Of a stretch of DNA of 64,000 bases, positions 1 to 14,779 are shown piece by piece. Position 1 is the first letter of the stretch. Each line of letters opens with the position of its first letter. The notes under the pieces were generated by a model. The model was not told where the DNA came from. It saw nothing but the letters and a program-made list of their open reading frames with translations, and did no database searches. Location of the stretch: the IMG/VR virus record IMGVR_UViG_3300035522_000179, positions 32,001-96,000 of that record; one strand, given 5' to 3'. The stretch is from a virus (lineage: Duplodnaviria > Caudoviricetes). Both the position numbers and the translations under genes were made by a program.

Positions 1-118
1 TTTTAAAACTATCATCTGCTTCGACAGTAGAGGTATCAGTTACCTCAGTATTGTCGTAGATAAAAGTCTCGACATGAGGGAATTGCCACTTAGGGACAAT
101 CTGAATTTCTGACGCCAT
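1..118 (-). CDS. 5' end of a late gene (MASEIQIVPKWQFPHVETFIYDNT...), possibly tail sheath; runs off window
   Basis: ATG at 118 with AGGAGG RBS and AACA-N6-TA motif at 162-173; N-terminus is reminiscent of jumbo-phage sheath starts (recollection only). Confidence 0.35.
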   Translation of the reverse strand, partial: MASEIQIVPKWQFPHVETFIYDNTEVTDTSTVEADDSFK

Positions 119-206
119 AATTGACGACCTCCTTTTTACATTTTTCAATAAAATATTGATTTAATTATTTGTTTTTAAAAAGAGACGGTCTTCTTGTAAG
201 AAAAAA

Positions 207-932
207 TCACATTTTAATGGTCTCTTCCACCGGAGAAAACGTTTCTTTTCCTTTCTTTCTTGCTCGGTTAATCGACGTTGTAATCATGGTATCCATATCC
301 TCAAACGTAATGGATGAGAAGGTGGATGCATACTGACAAATCTGTCTAATCCCAACGGTTTCATAATCATTTGCAGAAATCGATAAATCACTTCCATATA
401 AGGAAGCGAAGGTCTGAGATAAGTCTTTGGGATTTCGGTAATTTAGGGAAAGTACCATTTCCTCTACTTCCGATCTTACACCAAAACCCACATTATTCGT
501 TCTTTGGTTTTTTGTCCATAGTTCCGCGGTTTTGTCATAAGGAATGGATTTTGGAATTTTTCCATCCATGACAATATCCAAGTACTGCAATGAATTTTGA
601 GAATCTTGAATGACTTTGGCATCCATGACTTTCATTCCTCGGTGATATCTTAATACCTTACAAGGTACTCCCTTCTCTTGTGGGAAATCCTTCACTTCGT
701 TTGAGGAATTGTACACATACATCTTAATCTGATAAGGATGTTTTGTAACTTCGTACTTTTTGAAATTTCCGTTTTCAAAAATTCCTGCGTAAAACAAACC
801 TAGAGTTTCGATATAGGAAGAATAGTCTACCGCATATTTTTTCTGCTCATCAAAAAAAGCAAGAGGAATATAGAATTCCATGTAGTCATCATCCAAATAG
901 ATAAACGTATGGTCTGTATGAAAATGTGACAC
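207..932 (-). CDS. Probable virion RNA polymerase beta' C-terminal subunit (SPN3US gp244/phiKZ gp176-like)
   Basis: 241 aa; C-terminal STFSSITFEDMDTMITTSI...SPVEETI resembles the beta' C-terminal region; size fits my recollection of that subunit; late motif at 971-982. Confidence 0.5.
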   Translation of the reverse strand: MSHFHTDHTFIYLDDDYMEFYIPLAFFDEQKKYAVDYSSYIETLGLFYAGIFENGNFKKYEVTKHPYQIKMYVYNSSNEVKDFPQEKGVPCKVLRYHRGMKVMDAKVIQDSQNSLQYLDIVMDGKIPKSIPYDKTAELWTKNQRTNNVGFGVRSEVEEMVLSLNYRNPKDLSQTFASLYGSDLSISANDYETVGIRQICQYASTFSSITFEDMDTMITTSINRARKKGKETFSPVEETIKM

Positions 933-1123
933 GGTTTATACCCCCTTTCTTAGATTCTCATTTTTGAGCTTAAAGGACTGTTTTTATTCAAAAAATTCAG
1001 AAATCGAAGAAATGTAATCTGTAAGAAAAATAGAAATATATTATAGTGATGACTAAGTATCAGGGGTTTGTATATAGTTATAGTTGAGGGGGACAACCCC
1101 TTTTACTTTTTTATACAAAAAAA

Positions 1124-1155
1124 AGAAGATAGATACCAATTGGTATCTATCTTCT
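1124..1155. terminator. 32-bp perfect palindrome, probable terminator
   Basis: AGAAGATAGATACCAA/TTGGTATCTATCTTCT with adjacent A tract, just downstream of minus-strand gene 1166..1642. Confidence 0.75.
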
Positions 1156-1165
1156 AAATAGAAAT

Positions 1166-1642
1166 TCAAATCATTTCAAGTAACAAATCTCTTTCTTCTT
1201 CACTGATTTCTCCATACCGACAAGATTCGTAAATCTCCAAACGAAGATCATCCGTAGATTCTTTGATTCCTTTGAGTTTTTTCTGTGCATCCAGATATCT
1301 GCCTGCTTTGTATTTTTCTTCCGGAGATTCTCCCTCATTGCCATGATACTGCATCCAGTTGCTTTTCGTGTTTTTTGCATATTGTTTGCCGGCATCACTC
1401 TTACATCCACGAGGACTGTATTTTGTGATATCAGACCCAAGTCTATTAAATGCATCAGTTTTTATAGCACTCATTTTGGTATGATAGTAATCAGCTTTTT
1501 TATGTGCAAGATTAGTATTCATACTATCAAATATGTCACGTTTTTTCCTTGCTTTGATATATTCATCCTGTAATTTATTCGCCCATTTGTTATACGCATT
1601 TGCTTCCATCACGACATCATACAATTCATCAAAATTAGCCAT
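1166..1642 (-). CDS. Tagged-family protein type A (MANFDELYDVVMEA... / ...IYESCRYGEISEEERDLLLEMI), putative internal head protein
   Basis: Paralog of 2712, 6587 and 11620 genes: conserved ends, variable middle. Confidence 0.8.
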   Translation of the reverse strand: MANFDELYDVVMEANAYNKWANKLQDEYIKARKKRDIFDSMNTNLAHKKADYYHTKMSAIKTDAFNRLGSDITKYSPRGCKSDAGKQYAKNTKSNWMQYHGNEGESPEEKYKAGRYLDAQKKLKGIKESTDDLRLEIYESCRYGEISEEERDLLLEMI

Positions 1643-1734
1643 AATTATTTCCCTCTCTTTTTACAGATTTTATTGGTCTACATTTCTGTACCTGTATAAA
1701 ACAATAATACTAAAGTATTATTGTTTTATACAGG
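1596..1734 (+). repeat. 139-bp module identical to 12092..12230 (type A gene start + leader + palindrome)
   Basis: Direct base-by-base comparison. Confidence 0.9.
1691..1734 (+). repeat. 44-bp palindrome, copy 1 (AA core)
   Basis: CCTGTATAAAACAATAATACT-AA-AGTATTATTGTTTTATACAGG, perfect 21-bp arms. Confidence 0.97.
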
Positions 1735-1792
1735 AGGAAAAAACTTTTTATAAAAATTTATCATCCCCTCCTGTTTTTAAATCCCTAGAAAA

Positions 1793-1804
1793 AACAAATT
1801 AATA
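1793..1804 (+). promoter_or_regulatory. Late promoter motif AACA-N6-TA (representative; 17 copies listed in findings)
   Basis: AACA-AATTAA-TA upstream of gene 1853; same spacing recurs upstream of structural genes. Confidence 0.75.
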
Positions 1805-1852
1805 AATGATTTCAAAAACGAAAAAAATAAGAAAGATAAAGGAGAAAAAGAA

Positions 1853-2578
1853 ATGGAACAGCCATATACACCTAGGAAATCAAAGGACGAATTGAAATCC
1901 GTAAGGTTCGTATTAAAAGATGTTAAGAAAAGAGTTCAGCAAGCAAAAAAAAACGGGGACGTAGATGAATTAGAAAAATGCAATGAAAAAATAGATGTAC
2001 TAATCGATCATATGAAAAAAGTAAAATTGAATGGGATAGGGTTTGAAGAACAGAGAAAAACGTATGCAAATATGTCTAAATTGTCGTTAGAAATTGGAGC
2101 AGTTTTTGGTTTGATGTATGTGGCACAAGGTAAATTACTAGAGAAATTTATGAAGAAATCTATCGAGAATCGTTCAATTGAATATAGTGCAGTTTATACG
2201 TGCCCTCCTAGCAAAGAACGAGATAAATTAGAGGAAGAGTGTGACAGACGATATGATAGAGATTATAAAATTGCTTCTAATTGGGAAAGCATGAAGGATT
2301 TAACTGGAATCATATCTATGGGAGGTGCTGTAGGAGCTATAGAGACCGGAATAGAAAGTACCGGTGGGGCAAGATTACAAATGAAAATGAATAAACAGAT
2401 AAAAATTCTTGAAAAAATGAGTAGAGAGTTAAAAGCAGAAATCCAGCAATTGAAATCTCAACAGCGTGGTATAAAAGAGTCTGTGAATGATGTAAGACTT
2501 GAGATTTATGAGTCTTGCTATTACGGTGATATTACAGAGGACGAGAGAGATCTGCTTCTGGATATGATTGAAGAGTAA
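1853..2578 (+). CDS. Tagged-family protein (C-terminal tag only; hydrophobic segments and coiled coil)
   Basis: Ends IKESVNDVRLEIYESCYYGDITEDERDLLLDMIEE; AAGGAG RBS. Confidence 0.8.
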   Translation: MEQPYTPRKSKDELKSVRFVLKDVKKRVQQAKKNGDVDELEKCNEKIDVLIDHMKKVKLNGIGFEEQRKTYANMSKLSLEIGAVFGLMYVAQGKLLEKFMKKSIENRSIEYSAVYTCPPSKERDKLEEECDRRYDRDYKIASNWESMKDLTGIISMGGAVGAIETGIESTGGARLQMKMNKQIKILEKMSRELKAEIQQLKSQQRGIKESVNDVRLEIYESCYYGDITEDERDLLLDMIEE

Positions 2579-2628
2579 TATAAAACTAGATAGAATCATT
2601 ATTTGATTCTATCTAGTTTTTTCTTTTC

Positions 2629-2675
2629 CTGTAAAAATAACAATCTATCTAATAGATAGATTGTTATTTTTACAG
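2629..2675. repeat. Variant 47-bp palindrome followed by the TTTTATACAGG half-site
   Basis: CTGTAAAAATAACAATCTATCTA-A-TAGATAGATTGTTATTTTTACAG, perfect 23-bp arms, upstream of gene 2712. Confidence 0.85.
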
Positions 2676-2711
2676 TTTTATACAGGTAGAGTATTATAAG
2701 GAGGATTATAA

Positions 2712-3248
2712 ATGAGTAGATTTGATGAATTGTATGATGTGGTGATGGAAGCAAATGCGTATAACAAATTGGCGAATAATTTAAAAGATGAGTATGATAG
2801 AGAACGCAAGAAACGTGATAGTTATCGTCGTCGTTTAAGAAATTTGTCACCTGATAATCTCCTAATTAACAAAGCTGATTATAATACTAACAAAGTTGAT
2901 TATACTAACAAAGCTAATTATCATGATACAAAAATGCATGTTGCAGATACGGCGTACTATAATCAGATCGGTGGTAATATCCAAGATTACTGTCCTCACG
3001 GGAATAGATTTGGTACTTGCGAAGATTATAGAATTGCAAGAAAGAAGAAGAAAGAGTGGATGAAAAACCATGGAAATGTTGGAAAATCTCCGGAAGAGCG
3101 ATACAAAGAAGGCAGATATTTAGACCAACAGAAAGAACTCAAAGGAATCAAAGAATCTGTGGATGATATCCGTTTGGAGATTTATGAATCCTGTCGGTAT
3201 GGAGATATCTCGGAAGAAGAAAGAGATTTGTTATTGGAAATGATTTAA
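2712..3248 (+). CDS. Tagged-family protein type A (MSRFDELYDVVMEA...)
   Basis: Shared N- and C-terminal blocks; GAGGA RBS. Confidence 0.8.
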   Translation: MSRFDELYDVVMEANAYNKLANNLKDEYDRERKKRDSYRRRLRNLSPDNLLINKADYNTNKVDYTNKANYHDTKMHVADTAYYNQIGGNIQDYCPHGNRFGTCEDYRIARKKKKEWMKNHGNVGKSPEERYKEGRYLDQQKELKGIKESVDDIRLEIYESCRYGDISEEERDLLLEMI

Positions 3249-3290
3249 AGAATCTAGAAGAGATATATTAATATATCTCTTCTAGATTCT
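3249..3290. terminator. 42-bp perfect palindrome between convergent genes
   Basis: AGAATCTAGAAGAGATATATT/AATATATCTCTTCTAGATTCT. Confidence 0.75.
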
Positions 3291-3296
3291 ATTTTT

Positions 3297-4637
3297 TCAG
3301 ATCATCATTATTAGCTCATCTCTATCTTGCTCTGTTATCAATCCGTCATTAAATGATTCCATAATCATTAATACTGTATCAATATCTGAATCATCTCCAG
3401 ATTCTAATTCCAATGTTCTATCACCAGCATAAAAGTTCGGAAATAATGTTGTAATAATATCAGTTCTTCCTTGGAACATGGTATCAATTGCGGTTCTTGT
3501 TGCTGCAGTAATTACAAGATACTCCCCATTCACATTACCATCCAAATAATTCTGGTAAATCGTTTGAAGATCATTTATGCTTTCTTGAATCTCTTTTTTT
3601 ACTTTAGGATTCACGCCCGTTTTTGCGAGTTCTCTTTTCAGAAGTTCGATTGCGATAGTCGTTCTATTGGAAGAACTACCATGCATAGGACTAGTAAACT
3701 CATCTAAAATACTTGCTTCCGCCAATCGAATATCCGTTAATACTCGTATAATTGGGAAAGATGAAACTTTCTTAGTTCTTTTAAATTGCATTGATTGATC
3801 CGATTTATATAAAGCGGAGATAAGTTCTGGTCCATAACCATACGCAATAGCAAAAGAATCCGCAAATTCTTCTGATTTTTTCCCAGGTAACGTAAACAAT
3901 TGACTCACGGGGGATAATAAAACTTCAAGAGGTGTAAAAGGAATATTTATATAGGTGGATAATTTACGGATTTGAAGACCAATCCAATCGCCGGATTTAA
4001 GTAAAAATCCGTAAATAGATTTTATGATTGGAATCTTTTCAAAAATAAAACCTATAATTTTTTCACAAATCATATTAATCCTTCCAGGAATGAACTTTAA
4101 AGAATTCACATTATGAAATAAAGTACTTATCGGATCTATAAAATTTCTTTTTCTTAATTCATTCACAATACGAATGAACTTGATTAACCATGAAACCCCT
4201 TTATAAAAACTAAAATCAAAATTATGACCAATTTCATGCAAGATTAGGGCAGTGTACTCTCTCGGGGTAATGTCAATAGAGCGAACAAGTGCAGTTGATA
4301 AATTGATCAATGCAACGGTAGAGTGCGTTTTGTCATAATACCCTTTTTTTGAATCTATCTCAAACATACATTTTCCGGATACAACAGAATCTATAGAAGA
4401 ATATGTGGCTATTTGAGGAGAGAGTTCGGAATCTTTATACCACATGCAATAGGTTTCTTTAAACCCAAATTGCTTTGTGATTAAATTCTGTAATATTTTA
4501 TTCTCTGTGGAATTAGTTACATCATAATGGGGATCAATTTTAATTTTATCTATTATAATTCCAATTTGTTTTTCAATATTTGGAATCAATCCAGCTTTTC
4601 CGTAATATGCTTCCTGATATACATCAAACTCTTTCAT
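3297..4637 (-). CDS. Zincin-like (HEIGH) putative metallopeptidase with a degenerate family C-terminal tag
   Basis: EYTALILHEIGH, EEFADSFA, C-terminal MESFNDGLITEQDRDELIMMI; late motif at 4678-4689. Confidence 0.65.
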   Translation of the reverse strand: MKEFDVYQEAYYGKAGLIPNIEKQIGIIIDKIKIDPHYDVTNSTENKILQNLITKQFGFKETYCMWYKDSELSPQIATYSSIDSVVSGKCMFEIDSKKGYYDKTHSTVALINLSTALVRSIDITPREYTALILHEIGHNFDFSFYKGVSWLIKFIRIVNELRKRNFIDPISTLFHNVNSLKFIPGRINMICEKIIGFIFEKIPIIKSIYGFLLKSGDWIGLQIRKLSTYINIPFTPLEVLLSPVSQLFTLPGKKSEEFADSFAIAYGYGPELISALYKSDQSMQFKRTKKVSSFPIIRVLTDIRLAEASILDEFTSPMHGSSSNRTTIAIELLKRELAKTGVNPKVKKEIQESINDLQTIYQNYLDGNVNGEYLVITAATRTAIDTMFQGRTDIITTLFPNFYAGDRTLELESGDDSDIDTVLMIMESFNDGLITEQDRDELIMMI

Positions 4638-4806
4638 TTTATATAATTTTTCCTTTCTATTCAGTTACGGTTCATATTAGTATTTTGTTTTGTACATTTT
4701 CAAACTAGCAATTTTAATATAAACATATTTTTAAAATAAAAAATTTGTTTTTATACAGGAATACTTTTTATAGTAAAATCTTTTTATAAAAAGGAGAAAA
4801 ATAACT

Positions 4807-5547
4807 ATGGCTAATTTTGATGAGTTGTATGATATGATTAATGGTGCAACTTATGAATCCATGTTTGAGATTGACGATGATATGGATACAGATGATATTG
4901 CATATATCGAGAGTTGCAGGGATCTTACTGAGTACCTCGAAAAAACACGTATCACAGACAATGATGGAGAAGGTCCTTCTACTTTTAGAGAAAAACTCTC
5001 TAGATTTGCATTTAATAAAAAAGAAGATCTCAGAGAGGGCAAAGCTCGCATACAAGGTGCATTCGACAACGCAAGGATTAAGAAAATTCAGAAAGATATA
5101 GAGAAGAGAGAAAACTCTGATGGTGACGAGACTGTTCCTCAAAAGAAAATTTTTGCTCATTTGAGTAAAGGTGAAATCCTTGCAGGTGTTGGACTCTTAG
5201 CAGCCGCTGGTGTTGCTTCTCTTACCGTGATCAGACATAAGACAAAGAACAAAGAGATTGTTAAGACTGTAGATGATTTGAAGAAAGAGATTGAAGAGAT
5301 CAAGAAGTCTGCTAAAGCAGGTGAAATTTCTGTTAGAGAAGCTTGGAGTGAAACAAGAAGAATTAACAAAGAGATCAAAGCTCTCGAGAAAGCTGCTGAG
5401 GCTGAAGAGAAAGCTAATGCTGCTGAGGAAGCGAAGAAGGCTATGAAGGAGTCTGCTGATGATGTAAGACTTGAGATTTACGAGTCTTGCTATTACGGTG
5501 AGATTTCCGAGGACGAGAGAGATCTGCTTCTGGATCTTATGGACTAA
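4807..5547 (+). CDS. Tagged-family protein (MANFDELYD leader, TM-like helix, coiled coil, C-terminal tag)
   Basis: ILAGVGLLAAAGVASLTVI hydrophobic stretch; ends LEIYESCYYGEISEDERDLLLDLMD; degenerate palindrome/late motif at 4717-4759. Confidence 0.8.
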   Translation: MANFDELYDMINGATYESMFEIDDDMDTDDIAYIESCRDLTEYLEKTRITDNDGEGPSTFREKLSRFAFNKKEDLREGKARIQGAFDNARIKKIQKDIEKRENSDGDETVPQKKIFAHLSKGEILAGVGLLAAAGVASLTVIRHKTKNKEIVKTVDDLKKEIEEIKKSAKAGEISVREAWSETRRINKEIKALEKAAEAEEKANAAEEAKKAMKESADDVRLEIYESCYYGEISEDERDLLLDLMD

Positions 5548-5604
5548 TAAAACAATAAATGACCATGAACTTATCGATTATGATAAGTTCATGGTCATAT
5601 TTTT
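5527..5604 (+). repeat. 78-bp module (LLDLMD-stop + bidirectional terminator 5559..5598) identical to 11536..11613
   Basis: Direct comparison; 17-bp stem ATGACCATGAACTTATC/GATAAGTTCATGGTCAT. Confidence 0.9.
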
Positions 5605-5612
5605 TTATTATG

Positions 5613-6464
5613 TTAAATCATCTCCAAAAGTAAATCTCTTTCTTCTTCCGAGATTTCTCCATACCGACAGGACTCATAAATCTCAAGTTTGATATCATTG
5701 TCAGAAGTAGATTCTTTCATGATTTTAGAAAATACTGCGTTTCTTGCAGATACTTCTCTCATGGTTTCCTCATATCTTTTATCTATTTCAGCAAGACTGG
5801 TCTCGATCTTTGCTTGAACAGCAGGGGAATCAACTTTCACTTTTTTAACTTCTCTATTGAGTTGTATAAGTAATTTTTTCAAATCCTTATAAATCCGATG
5901 CAATTCTGTTACGAGATCATTGTATTTGGTAACTTCTGCATCTATTAATGAAAGTTTTTTTGTAGCATTCACAAATTCCTTTGAATTGTAATTCTTATTC
6001 ATTACTTCAGTTGTATTTGATTTTGCTGAAGAGATTCCTCCAACATCACTGGCAACTTTAGTAATAGATAATCCTCCGTTGGAATTTTCAGTCAATGTTA
6101 CCGTAGGAGCTCCTGATGTTTCAGCGATTATAGCATAAGCCAATGTCATAGTTTCCAGGCGACTGGCATGTTCATTTAATTCCTTCGTAACTTTATTAAT
6201 TTCTTTTTCTTTTTTTAGAATCTCATCCCGAATTGATTTCAATTGCGGATTTTTGTTGTATCCATTCTCTTTTCTCTTATTATCTGTGATGACAAGTCCA
6301 GCAACAAGCCCAACAACAGCAGAGACCAAAGCTCCGATACCTACCATTGGAGCATATTTTTTAATTTTTTGCTTTGTGGCAGGTGACATTTTTTCTACGT
6401 AATAATTATCTTCATTAACCGATTCTACTGTGCAATATAACTCTGTAAATTTATCCATATTCAT
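5613..6464 (-). CDS. Tagged-family protein type B (MNMDKFTELY... leader, TM-like helix, long coiled coil, tag)
   Basis: Paralog of 10729..11556; AAGGAG RBS before ATG 6464. Confidence 0.8.
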   Translation of the reverse strand: MNMDKFTELYCTVESVNEDNYYVEKMSPATKQKIKKYAPMVGIGALVSAVVGLVAGLVITDNKRKENGYNKNPQLKSIRDEILKKEKEINKVTKELNEHASRLETMTLAYAIIAETSGAPTVTLTENSNGGLSITKVASDVGGISSAKSNTTEVMNKNYNSKEFVNATKKLSLIDAEVTKYNDLVTELHRIYKDLKKLLIQLNREVKKVKVDSPAVQAKIETSLAEIDKRYEETMREVSARNAVFSKIMKESTSDNDIKLEIYESCRYGEISEEERDLLLEMI

Positions 6465-6538
6465 TTTCTCCTTTTTAGAATAAGAATGAGTCAACCTGTA
6501 TAAAACAATAATACTTTAGTATTATTGTTTTATACAGG
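6385..6538 (-). repeat. 154-bp module, inverted copy of 10655..10808 (1 mismatch)
   Basis: Palindrome + leader + codons through YYVEKMS. Confidence 0.9.
6495..6538 (-). repeat. 44-bp palindrome, copy 2 (TT core on + strand, opposite orientation)
   Basis: Identical arms; lies between divergent type B and type A genes. Confidence 0.97.
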
Positions 6539-6586
6539 TACAGAAAGCAGATTAGTACAAATATAAAAAAAGAGAGGGAAATAATT

Positions 6587-7096
6587 ATGGCTAATTTTGA
6601 TGAATTATATGATGTTGTAATGGAAGCAAATGCGTATAACAAATGGGCGAATAAATTGAAAAATGAGTATGATGATCATATGAAATCATATCATGATAAT
6701 CAAGACAAAATAATAAATAATAATAAATCCATTTTTGACCCCAGATCTAAAGTATGGGGGTATGCGGCAGATGCTAAAAAACATTTCAATGCCGCATATG
6801 ATATCGAGGATCAATATCGTTCTCAGACTGGTGAAAAAGAAATGAATTATTCACCACACGGAGACGAAAGAAGTGTTTATCAATCTTCTGTTCCGAAGCA
6901 AACTTGGATGAAAAAACATGGAAATGTTGGAAAATCTCCGGAAGAGAGATACAAACCAAATCGTTATTTAAACATCCAACAAAAAATAAATGGGACGAAG
7001 GAATCTGCAAATGATATTCGTTTGGAGATCTATGAGTCTTGTCGGTATGGAGAAATCAGTGAAGAGGAAAGAGATTTACTTTTGGAAATGATTTAA
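6587..7096 (+). CDS. Tagged-family protein type A
   Basis: MANFDELYDVVMEANAYNKWANKL...IYESCRYGEISEEERDLLLEMI. Confidence 0.8.
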   Translation: MANFDELYDVVMEANAYNKWANKLKNEYDDHMKSYHDNQDKIINNNKSIFDPRSKVWGYAADAKKHFNAAYDIEDQYRSQTGEKEMNYSPHGDERSVYQSSVPKQTWMKKHGNVGKSPEERYKPNRYLNIQQKINGTKESANDIRLEIYESCRYGEISEEERDLLLEMI

Positions 7097-7104
7097 AGTA
7101 ATAA

Positions 7105-7143
7105 AAATCTGGTAAAGGAATTTTAAATTCCTTTACCAGATTT
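7105..7143. terminator. Bidirectional hairpin (19-bp arms)
   Basis: AAATCTGGTAAAGGAATTT-T-AAATTCCTTTACCAGATTT between convergent genes. Confidence 0.75.
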
Positions 7144-7147
7144 GTTT

Positions 7148-9610
7148 TTATAATAATTCAGACATCTCTCGTTCAATTACTTCTAACACATCGATATCTT
7201 CAAATGTCGATTCCACTACGGGTCTCTCTTCCACTTTGGGATTTAAAATAGAATCTACAAAGTCATTAATTGCCGATTCCATTTTTTGATCTTCATCTGT
7301 TTCTTTGCTTTCTTTCAGATGTTCTACCCAGTCTTTCAGCGCGCCCATATAGCGTTTCTTCCATTTTTCAAATGCTTCATTCGGCGTTCCATCTTTTTCG
7401 TTGTAAGTATATGCTCTTACATAAATTCCAGTTGTATCGGAGTTTTTATTCAAATACCATCCTTCTGGAATCGTATCAAACTTATACTTCTTATCAAAGG
7501 TCAGTCGTGCAGTAGTGTAAATCTTTCCATGGTATACACCATCTCGATAACCATCTTCTTTAATTCTAGATCTATTATGTCCAGAGCAAGAATACTTCAC
7601 TGTATATCCAAGCTTATTCAAAAGATTTACGATGGGTTTAATATCCTCATCGATCTCATCTTCATCACTTTCTGTGACAACCAGTTCCTTATCAAAGTCA
7701 ATCTGATTCAAAACCTTCTCACAGATTTTTTCTGTTTCATTCTGAGAAACCAAATCGGTTGCAAATCGGTTCACTCTTTCTGTAAACTTGATATCATCCA
7801 GTTTGGTGTCAAACACAGATTCAAATACGTTATAGCAAGAATCAAACAAATTCGTACTAGGAGATTCATTGATCAGATCAACCATGTAATCAAACACATT
7901 ATCTGTATCAACACAAGCCTCTTCACAAACAGAATTGATCATAAACACCAATTCTTCTTTTCGGTTTTCAACGGATTCAGAGATGGTGTTGTAATTGCAA
8001 TCCTTTGCTTTCTTCATAAGAGAAAGTTTTTTATCACTCACCTCTTCAAAGGAATTTTCATAGTACGGATGATTCTCATTAAGAGTTCCATTATACGTGT
8101 CATTTACCCACTCGTTAATAATGATACTCTCCTTTCTAAAGTTCTTAACAGATTCCAAGACATCTTTTTCAGATTTCCTTTCTTCTCTTTCTTTCTTTTT
8201 CGCAGCTTCCTCTTTCTTTGCTCTCTTAACCTCTTTATAGTTTTCGATTGCATGATCAAAGGCGTTTTCTGCTTTATCTCGGTTTGCATCGTAGTTCGGA
8301 TCATCTTCCGGATCTTTTTCCAGAATCTTCTTTAACTTTCTTGCAGCGTCGCGAACATCGGATGCATCTGATTTCAATCCTAATTCTACCTTGTCTTCAA
8401 TTGCAGATTCTTTTACTGCACCTTGAATTTCATAAGAAATATCAACTCCAGTATTTACAGAACTAAATTCGCAGGTAATCAACATCTCTTTTATGCGTTT
8501 TATATAATGAGTGATCTGTCCATTTTCTTTTACTGGACTAAATCCACAAGAAGTGATGGTTTTCCGAATCATATTAGGATCTGCTTTATCGTTTGAAAAA
8601 GAAAATCCATATTTATTCTTTTTCGTGTTCAGACAAGATTTAAAACTAGTTGCATCATCTCCAGGATTAGAAAGTTTTAAATCTTTCTTCAACTTATCAA
8701 ACAGCTTTCTTGCTTCGGTATCAAAGGTGGGATTGTTTTTAAATACTGCAGCAGCTTCCGTAGTAACAAAGAGATTATTTGAACGGAACCATTGACCAGT
8801 ATATCCCAAAACGGATTCCAAAGAGTTAAACCTAGGAATCATTCTATCCTCTTCTCTTACCACATCCTCTGTTAAATCGTCTTCATTGGAATTAATTTCT
8901 GCATCTGTACTAGAAACCATATCCTTCACAGATACTCCGGAAAGATCTTTCGATAACACATTTCCAGTGAGAGGAATTACAGGAGCCATTGCACCAACAG
9001 ATTCATCGTCATTAAACAAAGACTGTGTAAATCCAGTGAGTACTGATGCATCCTCTAAAGTGATTGCGCCAGTAAGTGCTTTGCTACAGATTACTTTTTC
9101 GTATAAGTAATCTCTACTTACCCTTTCATCCGGAAAAGCACGGTAAAGATTTCTTGTAAGATCATCAAATCCATCCTCTCCAGCAGACTCGATGTATTTT
9201 GCAAGTTCATCTCTTTTCTCATCTGCTACAAGACTTGCCATCTTTCCTACCGTAGAATCGTTTTCCCAGGTAGATTCCAAAGTATAATCTTCATAAAAAG
9301 AATCTCCTTCCCTTCTTTTGATGATCTCTTTGAAAGGAAGAACTGCTTCTCCAAAGAATAAATTATTTACAGTTGGAATCTCATCTCCAAGCTCGGAAAC
9401 ATCCAATCCTCTTTCTACCAATGCTTCTTCATCTGCTCTTACAATATCAATCATTGCAAGGGCTTCGGATTCCGTAAGAAATCCAAAATTATAGTTGTCA
9501 TTAATTGCATCTAAAATTTTAATATCTTCTGCGACTTTCGCTTCCATGTAACGAGAAGTAAAAGGAATATCAAAAGTTGCAGGAATAGGTCGCATGTCAA
9601 AATTACTCAT
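7148..9610 (-). CDS. Large acidic putative inner-head protein with many x-x-E|S sites and a Tyw3-like (SCSGH) domain
   Basis: MSNFD start; repeated TLES/VKES/VLES/VTES/KMES; IDEDIKPIVNLLNKLGYTVKYSCSGH; late motif at 9636-9647. Confidence 0.6.
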   Translation of the reverse strand: MSNFDMRPIPATFDIPFTSRYMEAKVAEDIKILDAINDNYNFGFLTESEALAMIDIVRADEEALVERGLDVSELGDEIPTVNNLFFGEAVLPFKEIIKRREGDSFYEDYTLESTWENDSTVGKMASLVADEKRDELAKYIESAGEDGFDDLTRNLYRAFPDERVSRDYLYEKVICSKALTGAITLEDASVLTGFTQSLFNDDESVGAMAPVIPLTGNVLSKDLSGVSVKDMVSSTDAEINSNEDDLTEDVVREEDRMIPRFNSLESVLGYTGQWFRSNNLFVTTEAAAVFKNNPTFDTEARKLFDKLKKDLKLSNPGDDATSFKSCLNTKKNKYGFSFSNDKADPNMIRKTITSCGFSPVKENGQITHYIKRIKEMLITCEFSSVNTGVDISYEIQGAVKESAIEDKVELGLKSDASDVRDAARKLKKILEKDPEDDPNYDANRDKAENAFDHAIENYKEVKRAKKEEAAKKKEREERKSEKDVLESVKNFRKESIIINEWVNDTYNGTLNENHPYYENSFEEVSDKKLSLMKKAKDCNYNTISESVENRKEELVFMINSVCEEACVDTDNVFDYMVDLINESPSTNLFDSCYNVFESVFDTKLDDIKFTERVNRFATDLVSQNETEKICEKVLNQIDFDKELVVTESDEDEIDEDIKPIVNLLNKLGYTVKYSCSGHNRSRIKEDGYRDGVYHGKIYTTARLTFDKKYKFDTIPEGWYLNKNSDTTGIYVRAYTYNEKDGTPNEAFEKWKKRYMGALKDWVEHLKESKETDEDQKMESAINDFVDSILNPKVEERPVVESTFEDIDVLEVIEREMSELL

Positions 9611-9677
9611 TTTTTCCACCAACTTTCCATAGAATTATCAGATTGTTTTTGCATCTAAGGCAAACTAACATTAAAAT

Positions 9678-9792
9678 AATGAAAATACCAAATAGACGTA
9701 AAATGCTTGTTTAAGTTTCTGATTTGTTTTAATCTCCCATTGTTTTTTGAATAAGGAAGACACTCTGTATGTAGTGTCTTCCTTATTCTTTT
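9678..9792 (+). ncRNA. Candidate ~110-nt late small RNA
   Basis: AACA-N6-TA at 9667-9678, 16-bp terminator stem at 9749-9788, no credible ORF between. Confidence 0.35.
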
Positions 9793-9839
9793 CGTTAAAT
9801 TTACACTGGGAAACAATTTTTTAAAGAGGTGAAGATAAT

Positions 9840-10199
9840 ATGATTACAAATACATCAAATATCTTTGAATTTAAAACAAAAGAAACAGGATATATTGCAA
9901 AAGCTTGTGCTGCGCCAGAAGCAGGAGAGAAAAGAGAAATTTATATTCCAAGACTTATGCCGAATATAAAATCAGGAACCCCAAAAACATCCACTCTATC
10001 TTCTAGAGGAAATTTGGTGTTTAAAAACGCACCCGCTTGTAAAGTTCAAGCAGCAACCGTTTTGAAATCCCAAAACTATATCATGGTTCCTTATGAGAAA
10101 AATAAAACATGGGATGATCCAGAAATTAAGAGTATGACCCAAATTACTTGCAATTGCAAAAATAACACCATTGCTGGAATCACATTCTCAAATGATTAG
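9840..10199 (+). CDS. Hypothetical virion/baseplate-associated protein
   Basis: GAGGTG RBS, late motif at 9812-9823, adjacent to gp53-like gene. Confidence 0.55.
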   Translation: MITNTSNIFEFKTKETGYIAKACAAPEAGEKREIYIPRLMPNIKSGTPKTSTLSSRGNLVFKNAPACKVQAATVLKSQNYIMVPYEKNKTWDDPEIKSMTQITCNCKNNTIAGITFSND

Positions 10200-10210
10200 A
10201 GGAGTAAACT

Positions 10211-10630
10211 ATGAGTACACAAAATAGTAGTACACTGGAAACCCAGGTATATAATGAATTGAAAAATGATTTGATTTATAGGGATTTAAATTCTACGCTT
10301 GAAATATTAGATCGAGAGAGCAATGAAAAGATTGTAATACCTTATATTTCTACGGTATCAAAATATATGGATTTTTTAAAATCAATTATATTAGAAGTGG
10401 AATTGACAGATATTCAATATGAGAGATATCGGCAAAATCCTCATGCGGTATCGGAAGCATTGTATGGAACAACGCAGTATTGGGATATCTTACTGAAACT
10501 AAACAACTGTGTTAGTAGATTTGAGTTCAACAAAAAGAAAATCAAATACTACGACCCATTAGAATTAGTGACGTATTTGAATGAGTTAGTGATAAAAGAA
10601 GACGAACTTGCAAATACAAGTTCGTACTAA
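10211..10630 (+). CDS. Baseplate wedge protein, T4 gp53/LysM-like
   Basis: YRQNPHAVSEALYGTTQYWDILLKLNN signature. Confidence 0.7.
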   Translation: MSTQNSSTLETQVYNELKNDLIYRDLNSTLEILDRESNEKIVIPYISTVSKYMDFLKSIILEVELTDIQYERYRQNPHAVSEALYGTTQYWDILLKLNNCVSRFEFNKKKIKYYDPLELVTYLNELVIKEDELANTSSY

Positions 10631-10654
10631 TTTTTATAATTTACCCCCCCCCCC

Positions 10655-10698
10655 CCTGTATAAAACAATAATACTAAAGTATTATTGTTTTATACAGG
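10655..10698 (+). repeat. 44-bp palindrome, copy 3 (AA core)
   Basis: Identical to 1691..1734. Confidence 0.97.
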
Positions 10699-10728
10699 TT
10701 GACTCATTCTTATTCTAAAAAGGAGAAA

Positions 10729-11556
10729 ATGAATATGGATAAATTTACAGAGTTATATTGCGCAGTAGAATCGGTTAATGAAGATAATTATTACGTAGAA
10801 AAAATGTCTGCAGACGCTAGTTCGAAACTTAAAAAAGCTGCAGCAATAGCAGGTGTTGGAGTACTTGTTTCTGGTATTGTTGGACTTGTTGCTACAGATA
10901 GTAAGAGGACAGAATATGGATATAATAAAAATCCTGAGATGAAAGTTCTTCGAGATCAAATTCTCAAGAGAGAAAAAGAACTCAAAAAAGCAGTAACTAA
11001 CCTTGAACAACAAACAAAAAGGGTGGAAGCAATTGCACAAAGTTACAATACAATTGCAAACCAAATTGGAAAAGTTACTATTACATTGGAGGAAAACTCC
11101 AATGCAGGGTTAAGCATTAAAGAAGAGAATAAAATTGGATTTATTAGGGGAAAGAGTTCCGAAAAGGAAAATCCGAATTATTCTACGAAAATCTATATGG
11201 ATGCTTCTAAAAAAAGAGAAATCTTAAATATGGAAGTTGAAAAATACAATGTGCTAGTTAAAGAAGTAAACGATATTTATAAAGATTTACAGAAGTTGCT
11301 CAAAAAATTCAATAGCGCTGTGAAGATGTTGAAAGTGTCACCTAAAGTACAGGCAAAACTTACTGAAGAATTGAGTAAGATTGAAGAAAGATATAGTGAC
11401 GCTTTAACCGATATTAATGAAAGAAATGCCCAGTTTTCTAAATTTGTGAGAGAATCGGAAGAAGATACAAATGCAAAACTTTTTGTCCATGAGTCTTATC
11501 GATGTGGTGATATTACAGAAGAGGAAAGGGACATTCTTCTGGATCTTATGGACTAA
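10729..11556 (+). CDS. Tagged-family protein type B
   Basis: Paralog of 5613..6464; ends HESYRCGDITEEERDILLDLMD. Confidence 0.8.
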   Translation: MNMDKFTELYCAVESVNEDNYYVEKMSADASSKLKKAAAIAGVGVLVSGIVGLVATDSKRTEYGYNKNPEMKVLRDQILKREKELKKAVTNLEQQTKRVEAIAQSYNTIANQIGKVTITLEENSNAGLSIKEENKIGFIRGKSSEKENPNYSTKIYMDASKKREILNMEVEKYNVLVKEVNDIYKDLQKLLKKFNSAVKMLKVSPKVQAKLTEELSKIEERYSDALTDINERNAQFSKFVRESEEDTNAKLFVHESYRCGDITEEERDILLDLMD

Positions 11557-11619
11557 TAAAACAATAAATGACCATGAACTTATCGATTATGATAAGTTCA
11601 TGGTCATATTTTTATTACA

Positions 11620-12138
11620 TTAAATCATTTCCAAGAGAATATCTCTTTCTTCTTCACTGATTTCTCCATACCTACAGGATTCATAAATCTCCAAACGAAG
11701 ATCATCCACAGATTCTTTGATTCCTTTGAGTTCTTTCTGTTGGTCTAAATATCTGCCTGCTTTGTATCGTTCTTCCGGAGATTTTCCAACATCACCATGC
11801 TTTTTCATCCAATTTTTTTTAACACATTTAAAAGCAAATCTATCTCCGTAAGGTTCATCGTCATTTTTAAATCCATGTCTACTGTAATCTTTCAAACTAC
11901 TCATTCCGTCAACACTGTCATTATATCTACCTACTGCATGGGATCCTTTTTCAAAATGATCTTCAGCTTTCTTTCGTAATTCTTTTTTATATTCAGGGTC
12001 ATCTGCGTTATTAGCTAGTCTATTAAGTAATATATGCTTTTTTACATCCTTTTTATATTCATCCTGTAATTTATTTGCATATTTATTATATGCATTTGCT
12101 TCCATCACGACATCATACAATTCATCAAAATTAGCCAT
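11620..12138 (-). CDS. Tagged-family protein type A
   Basis: 5' DNA identical to gene 1166; a 58-bp 3' block is identical to gene 2712. Confidence 0.8.
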   Translation of the reverse strand: MANFDELYDVVMEANAYNKYANKLQDEYKKDVKKHILLNRLANNADDPEYKKELRKKAEDHFEKGSHAVGRYNDSVDGMSSLKDYSRHGFKNDDEPYGDRFAFKCVKKNWMKKHGDVGKSPEERYKAGRYLDQQKELKGIKESVDDLRLEIYESCRYGEISEEERDILLEMI

Positions 12139-12186
12139 AATTATTTCCCTCTCTTTTTACAGATTTTATTGGTCTACATTTCTGTA

Positions 12187-12230
12187 CCTGTATAAAACAA
12201 TAATACTAAAGTATTATTGTTTTATACAGG
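12187..12230 (+). repeat. 44-bp palindrome, copy 4 (AA core)
   Basis: Identical to 1691..1734. Confidence 0.97.
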
Positions 12231-12319
12231 GGGGGGGTAAATTATAAAAAACTTCAAAAAAAATAAGCTAAGAGATGTATGTTGCATCTCTTAGCTTATT
12301 TTCTATTCCTTGCTTTGTA

Positions 12320-12454
12320 CTACTTGTTCTCTTCATACCATTCCCGGTATTCATCCTCGGTTGAGAATAACTGATACGCATCGAACCCTTTTTCATCTTT
12401 CCCAATAAAGCCTTCACAACCATTTGATACAAGATAAAATTTGTACTCTAACAT
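12320..12454 (-). CDS. 44-aa early protein (MLEYKFYLVSNGCEGF...STEDEYREWYEENK), not in the ORF track
   Basis: AAGGAG RBS, early motif at 12594-12611, hairpin terminator near 12262-12302. Confidence 0.65.
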   Translation of the reverse strand: MLEYKFYLVSNGCEGFIGKDEKGFDAYQLFSTEDEYREWYEENK

Positions 12455-12707
12455 ATTTTTCTCCTTTCCTTTGGTGGCTTAAAACAGTTTATTAATTTCA
12501 TGTTTTGAGACATTTGAAAATAGTGATAAATAGTGCAAAGAACTTTTATAATTGAGTATGTATACATTTATACATACTCAATTATCTGTGTATTTCATGC
12601 AAATAATATATGAATCAATTTTCCTTGTTTTCAATTTATTTTTATATACTAAAATACACTTCATTAATCACAAGAAACTGATAAAATGAAGAAAGGATGG
12701 TATTAAC

Positions 12708-13079
12708 ATGAGTTTAATATCAGCAGAACGATTACATAGATGGAAATGTGTCTATTGTGGATCAAAGGATAAAAACATTGTGAATATACTTGCTCCGCTT
12801 GCGGAAGGAGAAGAAAATCTTGTAGGATCGACTGGTGAAGTAAATGGAAATAAGTTGGGTTCTGCTATGAAGATTGTGACCTGTTCTCAGTGCGGACATA
12901 CGGATATTTTTTCACATTCCGCTCTTATGGCAGGGCATATTCTTAGGAATGAAAAAATTCCAACATTTACGGAATCGGAAAACTATGTCAAAAAATTCCA
13001 TGATAAAAATCACAACGATCCTCTTAGAAATCCACACAATGAACACCCATCAACGACAACACCTAAAAATACCATTTAA
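12708..13079 (+). CDS. Zinc-ribbon protein
   Basis: CVYC...CSQC pairs. Confidence 0.6.
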   Translation: MSLISAERLHRWKCVYCGSKDKNIVNILAPLAEGEENLVGSTGEVNGNKLGSAMKIVTCSQCGHTDIFSHSALMAGHILRNEKIPTFTESENYVKKFHDKNHNDPLRNPHNEHPSTTTPKNTI

Positions 13080-13136
13080 CAAGGAAGGAAGAATACTCAG
13101 TTAAATTACAAAATAAGAAAAGGACGGTAAACTAAC

Positions 13137-13904
13137 TTGAGTATTAATTTTATGAATGATGAGGAAAAATATGAATCTAGTTCCTTTCTCTCTAAGGTAC
13201 CTGTGTCGTTATTAAAAGAAAACATTACAACGCAATTTAAAGATCCTGAGAATTTTCGAATTGATTATGTATCGTCATTTATTGATTCTTTTAATTATTC
13301 GATCGGATCGATTGAAGATTCCGATGAGGAAGAAGAATTGCTTACCTTACATGATGATTTCATAGAGTTTATGGAATCCATGATCTATGAAAAATTAGGA
13401 GTAGGAATTGAAGGATTAGAAGAACTCAGTAGACAAGATCAGGAAGATTTGATTTTGTTTACCTATCGATTCTTTATCATCAATATCCGAAAGAACTTCT
13501 TTAACCTGTTCTTTAATTATATCAAAGAGCACAAAGAAGAATTACTTGCAAATGCAAAACGCTATAAGGATGTCACTAGTCAGGCGTTTAAAAAAGAGAT
13601 TAGTGAGGAAGACACTACAATCCTTGCAAACTTGTCAGAGTTTATGGATTGCGCTATACAGGATGATCGATTAACGATTGATGATTTTTTCCGTTATTGT
13701 GAGGGAGATAAGTCGTGTGTAGAAACGATGTTTGTAACAAAGGCATTTGATGATTTTACGTTAACAGGAAACTTTATTAAGACCTATGCAAAATTAGTAA
13801 GACCTACTATGCGAATTCGTATTGAAGCGGAAATTCGAAATAATATCTTGAAAAAATACCGAGAAGCGGCTCCAGAACTTTCGGAGTATCAATTAGAAGA
13901 TTAA
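13137..13904 (+). CDS. Hypothetical protein
   Basis: 255-aa ORF with AAGGA RBS. Confidence 0.65.
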   Translation: MSINFMNDEEKYESSSFLSKVPVSLLKENITTQFKDPENFRIDYVSSFIDSFNYSIGSIEDSDEEEELLTLHDDFIEFMESMIYEKLGVGIEGLEELSRQDQEDLILFTYRFFIINIRKNFFNLFFNYIKEHKEELLANAKRYKDVTSQAFKKEISEEDTTILANLSEFMDCAIQDDRLTIDDFFRYCEGDKSCVETMFVTKAFDDFTLTGNFIKTYAKLVRPTMRIRIEAEIRNNILKKYREAAPELSEYQLED

Positions 13905-13926
13905 CAAGCAAAAAAGAAAAATAAAC

Positions 13927-13944
13927 ATATACTATTTTCGTGAA
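13927..13944 (+). promoter_or_regulatory. Early promoter motif ATATAYYAT-N5-TGAA (representative; 11 copies listed in findings)
   Basis: ATATACTAT-TTTCG-TGAA; recurs upstream of non-structural genes. Confidence 0.7.
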
Positions 13945-13972
13945 TAATTAATAGAAAGGTGGATTTAAGTTT

Positions 13973-14779
13973 ATGTGGGGAACAAATCAAAACCGTATGA
14001 ACAACAGCCAAGACACAAACGTAAACACAATACTGCGTACATCATCATCGGATACTTCATCCTTAACGATTTCTTTATGGAATCAGAATATCAGTTTGAA
14101 GATTCGTCCCGCCGTTGGTGTGGATGGAAATGGAATTACCCAATATGATAAGGGTAGATCTGGAAATACTGCTCTGACACAAGAAGCAGCAGCTTCCTTG
14201 TTTGAAGAGTTTAAGAATGTTATTCTTCCGGTTTACAACAAGGTCGTTTTGGAAGGGGAACCCTGCCCGGAGAACCTTGGAATTGTTGTAGAGACGGGAA
14301 GAGATGCAAAGAGGAATTTGGTTGGTATTGAGATGAGACCTTCCAAAGATGAAAGAGATACAACACCGGATATGTATTTCGTTCTTTATGGAATGGTGGA
14401 TGAGAATGGAACTGCTGTAGAAGCAAACACCTTCCGTCACAAATTCCAAAAGAGACTGGTGAAGGTAGGATATAATCCTATGAATGGTGTTTCCCAAAGA
14501 GAGATTCGTTCCAATTCGGATTTTAATCTCTTTTTGAATATCATTGGAAAGACAGAGTTGCTTCTTCCTTATTCGGAGCACGTATCAAAATATAACAAAG
14601 AAAGATTTAAAGGAACAAGTTCAAATTCTGGATCCTTTGGACAGAGCGGAGGATTTCCGAGTGGCTCTCTTCCTCAGTCTTCTGGAACCAACTTTAGTTC
14701 CAATGGTCCTTCCAGTTATGGAGGATTTGGAGGAGCAAGTAACTTTGGTCTCGACAACGGAGAGATTCCGTTTAATTAA
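13973..14779 (+). CDS. Probable single-stranded DNA-binding protein
   Basis: beta-rich N-domain, G/S-rich linker, acidic tip DNGEIPFN like the SSB DDDIPF tail. Confidence 0.55.
   Translation: MWGTNQNRMNNSQDTNVNTILRTSSSDTSSLTISLWNQNISLKIRPAVGVDGNGITQYDKGRSGNTALTQEAAASLFEEFKNVILPVYNKVVLEGEPCPENLGIVVETGRDAKRNLVGIEMRPSKDERDTTPDMYFVLYGMVDENGTAVEANTFRHKFQKRLVKVGYNPMNGVSQREIRSNSDFNLFLNIIGKTELLLPYSEHVSKYNKERFKGTSSNSGSFGQSGGFPSGSLPQSSGTNFSSNGPSSYGGFGGASNFGLDNGEIPFN

Follow-up and report, generated by a model that had tools for sequence, protein, structure and literature searches.

A 64,000-nt stretch of an uncultured virus (Duplodnaviria; Caudoviricetes), hereafter the window, contains four identical 44-bp palindromes; it comprises bases 32001–96000 of the 249,613-bp IMG/VR record IMGVR_UViG_3300035522_000179, which is rated 100% complete. 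We propose that these elements are palindromic late-promoter cassettes that also serve as recombination joints, a reading to which we assign a probability of roughly 0.55. Each element would comprise two copies of a late-promoter box, CCTGTATAAAACAA, set face to face; the box is predicted to be of the type known from phage AR9 and to be read by the phage's non-virion RNA polymerase. From a start close to the dyad centre, transcripts would extend outward into the flanking gene, which is of one of two types, A or B. As identical, hairpin-forming cassettes, the elements would at the same time provide portable homology, with which the general recombination and replication machinery could invert, excise or insert blocks of genes. 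The 2-bp core would be the tip of a hairpin loop that flips on its own, not the crossover site of a recombinase.

Four palindromes with a late-type promoter box

A pattern search of the window returned exactly four 44-bp matches with 0 mismatches (0.00 expected, 100 shuffles), each with perfect 21-bp arms around a 2-bp core. This confirmed the copies at 1691, 6495, 10655 and 12187, with cores AA, TT, AA and AA, that an earlier note on this DNA had described. Extending the search to the rest of the genome, as that note had suggested, left these four as the only copies in the whole virus record. The exact palindrome had no match in IMG/VR, and a search of JGI metagenome contigs with 20 of the 21 nt of an arm gave six single-strand chance matches and zero palindromes, in a collection from which entries very close to the window may be missing. 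All four elements lie within one 12.5-kb block of paralogous genes (further family members are found at 125–135 kb of the genome), which have a common N-terminal leader, unrelated middles and a common C-terminal tag of ∼25 residues. The palindromes and the type A and B genes beside them are as follows.

1691–1734, palindrome copy 1, plus-strand core AA; TT side toward A1, AA side toward the gene at 1853–2578
6495–6538, palindrome copy 2, plus-strand core TT; between the divergent genes B2 (minus) and A2 (plus); also in assemblies L017 and L018
10655–10698, palindrome copy 3, core AA; AA side toward B3, other side adjoining a C13 run and the terminator of the gene at 10211–10630
12187–12230, palindrome copy 4, core AA; TT side toward A4, AA side adjoining a G9 run and then a terminator; also in assembly L035
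1166–1642, minus strand, A1, type A gene, 158 aa; belongs to the family with the C-terminal tag
5613–6464, minus strand, B2, type B gene, 283 aa
6587–7096, plus strand, A2, type A gene, 169 aa
10729–11556, plus strand, B3, type B gene, 275 aa
11620–12138, minus strand, A4, type A gene, 172 aa

The earlier note had also held that the orientation of the cores is not random. Within the window, the core indeed reads outward as TT on the sides of the three type A genes and as AA on those of the two type B genes. That this is non-random is not established, because the rule rests on only three independent comparisons (chance 1/8), because the flanks were duplicated together with the element (8 nt of the A-side flank are common to all copies and 95 nt to A1 and A4, and 63 nt of the B-side flank are common), and because the rule is broken in one assembly of the phage, L020, described below.

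The virus is an AR9-like jumbo phage, though a distant one, that encodes multisubunit RNA polymerases of its own. Two sets of these polymerase genes are present, 28–35% identical to their counterparts in Fusobacterium, Listeria, Bacillus (AR9, BpSp) and Staphylococcus jumbo phages. A megablast query of 14 kb found no match among cultured phages. Promoter motifs were recovered de novo by k-mer enrichment upstream of genes. This yielded an early motif, TATATTAT-N6-G, with ∼40 sites, and a late motif, AAACA-N6-TAA, for which 34 of the 45 genome occurrences fall in upstream intergenic DNA (81-fold density). The motifs of Bacillus phage AR9 are AAATATATATTAT-6N-G (early) and AACA-6N-TA/G (late), the last base of the latter being the transcription start, and 17 of the 118 late promoters of AR9 depart from this motif in their spacing or sequence (PMC5312081). 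Judged by sequence, the two motifs of the present phage are essentially those of AR9, though the polymerase proteins are only ∼30% identical.

Each palindrome arm contains the late-type 14-mer CCTGTATAAAACAA, and AAACA is present in each arm. Read in the AA direction, the element is AAACA-N7-TAA, with the predicted start on the first core base, and read in the TT direction it is AAACA-N7-TTT; the N7 spacing class of the late motif is enriched 15-fold upstream of genes. The box occurs once more in the genome, at 225841–225854 (minus strand), 78 nt upstream of the major head gene (224018–225769, minus strand; phrog_20655 match, E 1.8e-38), where ∼0.006 chance matches were estimated from base composition. 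The major head gene does not belong to the tagged family and the box before it forms no palindrome. From the element to the start codons of the A and B genes we found no other promoter motif. Divergent genes or terminators lie opposite B2/B3 and A1/A2, and A1, A2 and B2 cannot receive read-through because the genes opposite them are divergent; on the gene-less sides of copies 3 and 4, terminator hairpins follow within ∼30–60 nt outward. In distant relatives (42% and 38% protein identity), the A-like genes are preceded at ∼40 nt by plain AACA-N6/7 late motifs that form no palindrome. Because the element matches the phage late-promoter motif and shares its box with the region upstream of the major head gene, its primary role is more likely to be transcriptional.

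Compared with AR9 late promoters (Lavysh et al., 2017, PMC5312081; Sokolova et al., 2017, PMC5449584), the elements are alike in the AACA box, the A-rich upstream region, the TA at the start and the distance of 25–90 nt to the open reading frame (ORF); the other late-type motifs of the genome fit exactly, and AR9 also has non-standard spacings. They differ in a spacing of 7 instead of 6, in an upstream extension of the box (CCTGTAT), in the overlap of two boxes as a perfect palindrome and in the missing TA in one direction. Two other promoter readings were rejected: as an early promoter, the arm has a position weight matrix score of 1.3 (real sites > 8.6) and ranks above 1200, while host sigma-70 promoters were predicted at 47 sites vs 53.9 expected, none of them usefully placed on the element.

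The palindromes are also conserved where their surroundings are not. The 44 bp are identical in all copies, as against 82–90% identity of the adjoining gene 5′ regions, and two further palindromes of related design lie in the same block.

2629–2675, variant perfect palindrome P′, 23-bp arms and a 1-nt centre; upstream of the A-like gene at 2712–3248
∼4718–4759 (approximate), degenerate imperfect palindrome of the same design; between the divergent genes at 3297–4637 (minus) and 4807–5547 (plus)

P′ has AACA-N7-TA in both directions and is followed, at 2677–2687, by TTTTATACAGG, a remnant of the arm end of the main palindrome (P). It keeps the outer CTGTA...ACAAT design of P and differs from it at several positions and by small indels, every one of these differences being mirrored in both arms. 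In the diverged strains L045 and L046, P′ is 47/47 identical, the flanks are 85–90% identical and the neighbouring genes differ. Since P′ is single-copy, conversion between copies cannot account for this conservation, and since it is invariant amid diverged flanks, P′-type palindromes are under selection and functional.

Rearranged junctions and a flipped core

Four types of flank adjoin the elements, i.e. the A side, the B side, the G/C-run side and the side of the gene at 1853, and they combine in four different pairs exactly at the element ends. The unit 10655–12230, made up of element, B3, terminator, A4 and element, is a circular permutation of the B2–element–A2 unit at 6495. It sits between the inverted flanks TTTTTATAATTTA-C13 and G9-TAAATTATAAAAA.

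10631–10656, outer left flank of the two-gene unit, TTTTTATAATTTA followed by C13; inverted repeat of the outer right flank
12229–12250, outer right flank of the two-gene unit, G9 followed by TAAATTATAAAAA
10602–10625, two-way terminator-like hairpin outside copy 3, which would stop outward transcription from the element
12260–12302, terminator-like hairpin outside copy 4, from the terminator scan

Homopolymers of G or C of ≥ 7 nt occur only three times in the 250-kb genome, as C13 (window 10644–10656), G9 (window 12229–12237) and C11 (genome 133987–133997). All three adjoin genes of the tagged family, two of them abut palindromes, and their length varies between assemblies (G9 vs G11 in L037, C13 vs C11 in L029).

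Other assemblies of the same phage were retrieved through an exact-protein look-up. The phage is present in JGI samples 3300035520, 3300035521, 3300043109 and 3300035516 and in SRA runs SRR11794809, SRR10148552 and SRR11794512. Five of the assemblies (L017, L019, L033, L034 and L035) are in agreement with the window. L018 (sample 3300043109) follows window positions 11890–10655 with 100% identity and then, from the element on, 6539–7967, again with 100% identity, which gives the order A4 tail, B3, element, A2, 824-aa gene. Its B3–element–A2 junction is what an inversion between copies 2 and 3 would produce. The position of the crossover is resolved only to a 107-nt exact repeat, composed of the 63 nt of common B 5′ sequence plus the element; because it may fall anywhere in this (inverted) repeat, homologous recombination explains L018 equally well. 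The earlier note had considered inversions possible between the copy at 6495 and any other copy. For copies 2 and 3 the predicted junction exists, with the qualifications that the crossover interval spans 107 nt and that a mis-join is possible. Differences between strains also map to other shared modules, beyond the palindromes.

A look-up of the gene at 10211–10630, which would border a reciprocal junction or an empty site, returned only the unitig L029 (SRR11794809), which ends in C11 and then G18 at a point corresponding to window position 10654. This end is a probable artefact of dark-cycle or hairpin sequencing failure; alternatively, it hints at an empty Cn-Gn site without the two-gene unit. 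The 54-aa ORF at 12268–12432, looked up for the same purpose, was not on record.

L020 (sample 3300035521) equals window positions 2247–1122 except that the 2-bp core of copy 1 is inverted, with both flanks unchanged. Its two novel flank-to-core combinations are absent from the rest of the genome, and k-mer confusion between copies is therefore no explanation. The flip is the only difference across > 20 kb of otherwise identical comparisons, which argues that it is faster than point mutation. It is consistent with template switching that inverts the loop, or with conversion between wrongly aligned copies, an alignment that the perfect arms permit. Minute inversions of hairpin loops are known from chloroplast DNA, and quasi-palindromes are corrected by template switching, in neutral non-coding hairpins or at mutational hotspots. 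L020 resembles these cases in that the loop flips while stems and flanks stay unchanged, and the arms of P and P′ have likewise remained symmetric despite divergence; unlike those hairpins, the present one is also a conserved promoter-like element.

Several points weigh against the reading of the elements as late-promoter cassettes and recombination joints. The spacer is N7 and not the canonical N6, and in the TT direction, in which all type A genes lie, no consensus TA stands at the predicted start. The case for promoter activity is drawn from motif matches only. The positional argument is confounded by shared ancestry, as the elements lie mainly before paralogues, with the major head gene as one independent case. 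A two-way promoter alone needs no 21 perfectly symmetric base pairs, so that a further constraint exists, be it a hairpin or cruciform, a dimeric binder or homogenization of the arms. The L018 join could be an assembly mis-join across the 107-nt repeat at low coverage. Finally, a RecA-type recombinase was not detected in the genome; an SbcC-like subunit of a palindrome nuclease is encoded.

Alternative readings and related systems

Among the alternatives, the one that survives best, though we regard it as unlikely, takes the element as a purely structural hairpin: a two-way terminator or insulator, or a signal for RNA processing or stability, with no promoter activity and with recombination as an incidental effect. 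Long perfect hairpins made of an A-run, a stem and a T-run are abundant in this genome (26 vs 5.1 expected in a 12-kb stretch) and act as two-way terminators, and one such hairpin carries a compensatory change between strains. The element itself folds at −27 to −30 kcal/mol (z ∼ −7), and on either strand TTTTAT comes directly after its inner 10-bp stem. A terminator scan flagged P′ and many other hairpins as terminator-like; none of the four 44-bp copies was flagged, and no T-run follows the element. Moreover, the element is always found at gene 5′ ends, copy 2 lying between divergent starts where there is nothing to terminate. A structural role would leave B2, B3, A1 and A2 without any recognizable promoter, and it does not account for the same box standing before the major head gene without a palindrome.

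The earlier note had taken the palindromes for site-specific recombination sites whose core dictates the outcome: a recombinase of phage or host would bind the arms, cut the asymmetric core and invert or excise the DNA between copies. The Hin and Gin invertases act on such sites (hix, gix), which are inverted half-sites around a 2-bp AA/TT core, with imperfect arms of ∼12 bp. The geometry of the elements fits, with inverted arms around an asymmetric 2-bp core; the L018 junction is as predicted for inversion of the oppositely oriented copies 2 and 3, with core orientation toward each flank preserved there; and the unit 10655–12230 reads as an integrated circle. What stands of the claim is that DNA has been rejoined at the elements, as seen in the four flank pairings, the permuted unit and L018. 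A core-dictated, hix-like site we consider improbable. L020 argues against it because a serine recombinase retains the overhang of each half-site, which fixes the core relative to its flank, so that a flip with unchanged flanks would be impossible. The L018 crossover is resolved to 107 nt only, and strain differences fall at other shared modules too. The perfect 21-bp arms far exceed known half-sites, and the elements lie in putative promoters of four loci instead of bracketing one invertible switch.

The search for an enzyme points the same way. Profile searches agree with the earlier note that no recombinase is encoded in the window. Carried through the rest of the genome, which the note had proposed for serine, tyrosine and HUH recombinases, they detected no tyrosine recombinase, Y1 HUH transposase, IS110-type transposase or large serine recombinase domain (PF07508), and no intact invertase gene. 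The only candidates were two adjacent, degenerate resolvase-like ORFs of 272 and 345 aa (L005:1258–3079, minus strand; genome 16761–18582), ∼15 kb upstream of copy 1 and outside the window, which combine a MerR-type helix-turn-helix (HTH) with a sub-threshold resolvase-like domain. They are IS607-TnpA-like (phrog_6620) and match the Resolvase profile with 18.6 and 14.2 bits, both below the Pfam cut-off of 23.3. In alignments to TP901-1 integrase and TnpX, Pro replaces the catalytic Ser in the 272-aa protein, and the Arg residues of the D-x-x-R-x-x-R motif are missing from it; the 345-aa protein retains the Ser but has neither Arg. By these residues, the two look like non-catalytic DNA binders. 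A search for homologues of the 272-aa ORF among 5.8 billion proteins returned only itself.

These two apparently non-catalytic proteins are also one candidate in a third explanation, which we judge just as improbable, namely that the palindrome is the operator at which a dimeric DNA-binding protein jointly regulates the A and B genes. MerR-type regulators bind dyads inside promoters, two MerR-HTH ORFs of non-catalytic appearance are present, and perfect dyad symmetry is kept even as the sequence diverges between P and P′. Nothing, however, ties these proteins to the element, the symmetry of 21–23 bp per arm extends far beyond the contacts of one HTH, and the 272-aa ORF offers no homologues for comparison.

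Only a faint chance is given to the idea that the core is a minimal invertible promoter switch, in which spontaneous flipping of the loop tip toggles which flanking gene is strongly transcribed, amounting to recombinase-free phase variation of the tagged A and B proteins; it is raised because a complete late-promoter start (AAACA-N7-TAA) is present in the AA direction only and because a flip was seen at copy 1 in another sample. A transposon with the palindromes as terminal inverted repeats was rejected, there being no transposase, no target duplication and a cargo of two family paralogues. Inverted duplication of a promoter plus gene, back to back, was rejected as a full explanation, because each box lies beyond the centre from the gene it faces.

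For the late-promoter cassettes that we favour, the closest known system, by analogy, is the promoter-early stem-loop (PeSL) cassette of T4-type phages (Arbiol, Comeau et al., 2010, PMC2839356; 2014, PMC4122927). PeSLs are repeated modules of promoter plus stem-loop in hyperplastic regions, often with poly-G/poly-C tracts; general phage recombination exchanges genes between them and forms mini-circles, with no dedicated recombinase (PMC2839356). The elements described here are likewise short, repeated intergenic cassettes with a promoter (here inferred from motifs) and a stable stem-loop, placed in a hyperplastic region of variable non-core genes with poly-G/poly-C tracts. As in PeSLs, whose features include circles of 1–4 ORFs, recombination between copies would produce insertions, deletions and replacements without a dedicated recombinase. 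As to breakpoints at cassettes between close strains, we have a single recombinant contig (L018) and a single flipped core (L020), other strain differences lying at other shared modules. Three differences set the elements apart: they carry an AR9-type late motif of a phage-encoded RNA polymerase, whereas PeSLs carry a sigma-70 early promoter, which makes the present elements a variant and not strict members; promoter and stem-loop are the same 44 bp, with two face-to-face boxes forming the hairpin; and the cargo consists of late, probably virion-associated tagged genes, unlike the early ORFans of PeSLs.

If the proposed reading is true, the PeSL idea that promoter cassettes double as gene-swapping joints would extend from T4-type phages using host sigma-70 to AR9-like jumbo phages with their own polymerases, and the diversification of a C-terminally tagged, probably virion-associated protein family would be explained. 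The element would also be a compact candidate two-way promoter for a non-virion RNA polymerase, and the flipped core a natural marker of palindrome rearrangement in vivo that outpaces point mutation.

The tagged gene family and other features of the genome

At least 13 proteins (window 1166–12138; genome 125239–134571) end in the same tag of ∼25 residues, with a consensus near LEIYESCRYGEISEEERDLLLEMI, and many of them also share the N-terminal leader MANFDELYD / MDKFTELY. The common tag is possibly an address for virion packaging; the genes flanking the palindrome block are virion or baseplate-like. No Pfam family was found for the genes of the paralogous block, tblastn of A4 against cultured phages gave no match and A2 had no relatives in IMG/VR. 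The paralogues are mosaic, as A4 combines the 5′ end of A1 with the 3′ end of the gene at 2712, and neighbouring genes differ from strain to strain.

Between convergent family genes, identical 40-bp terminator hairpins are located at window positions 5559–5598 and 11568–11607. In the related strains L045/L046, a compensatory double change in the stem of this hairpin converts ATGACC...GGTCAT to ATGAGC...GCTCAT. Rfam and tRNA scans of window positions 1–14000 returned nothing relevant.

Two further ORFs lie elsewhere in the genome. One encodes an RNA polymerase subunit of 928 aa (L008:837–3623, minus strand; genome 20837–23623), which is undivided in this phage and in Fusobacterium jumbo phages. 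In AR9 and in Listeria and Staphylococcus jumbo phages, residues 1–520 and 528–924 of this subunit find their matches at distinct positions of each record, apparently in two genes. The other is a 1253-aa ORF similar to the anaerobic ribonucleotide reductase NrdD (L011:5585–9346, minus strand; genome 140585–144346). Its matches fall in three stretches and an internal segment matches other families, which suggests an intein or other insertion.

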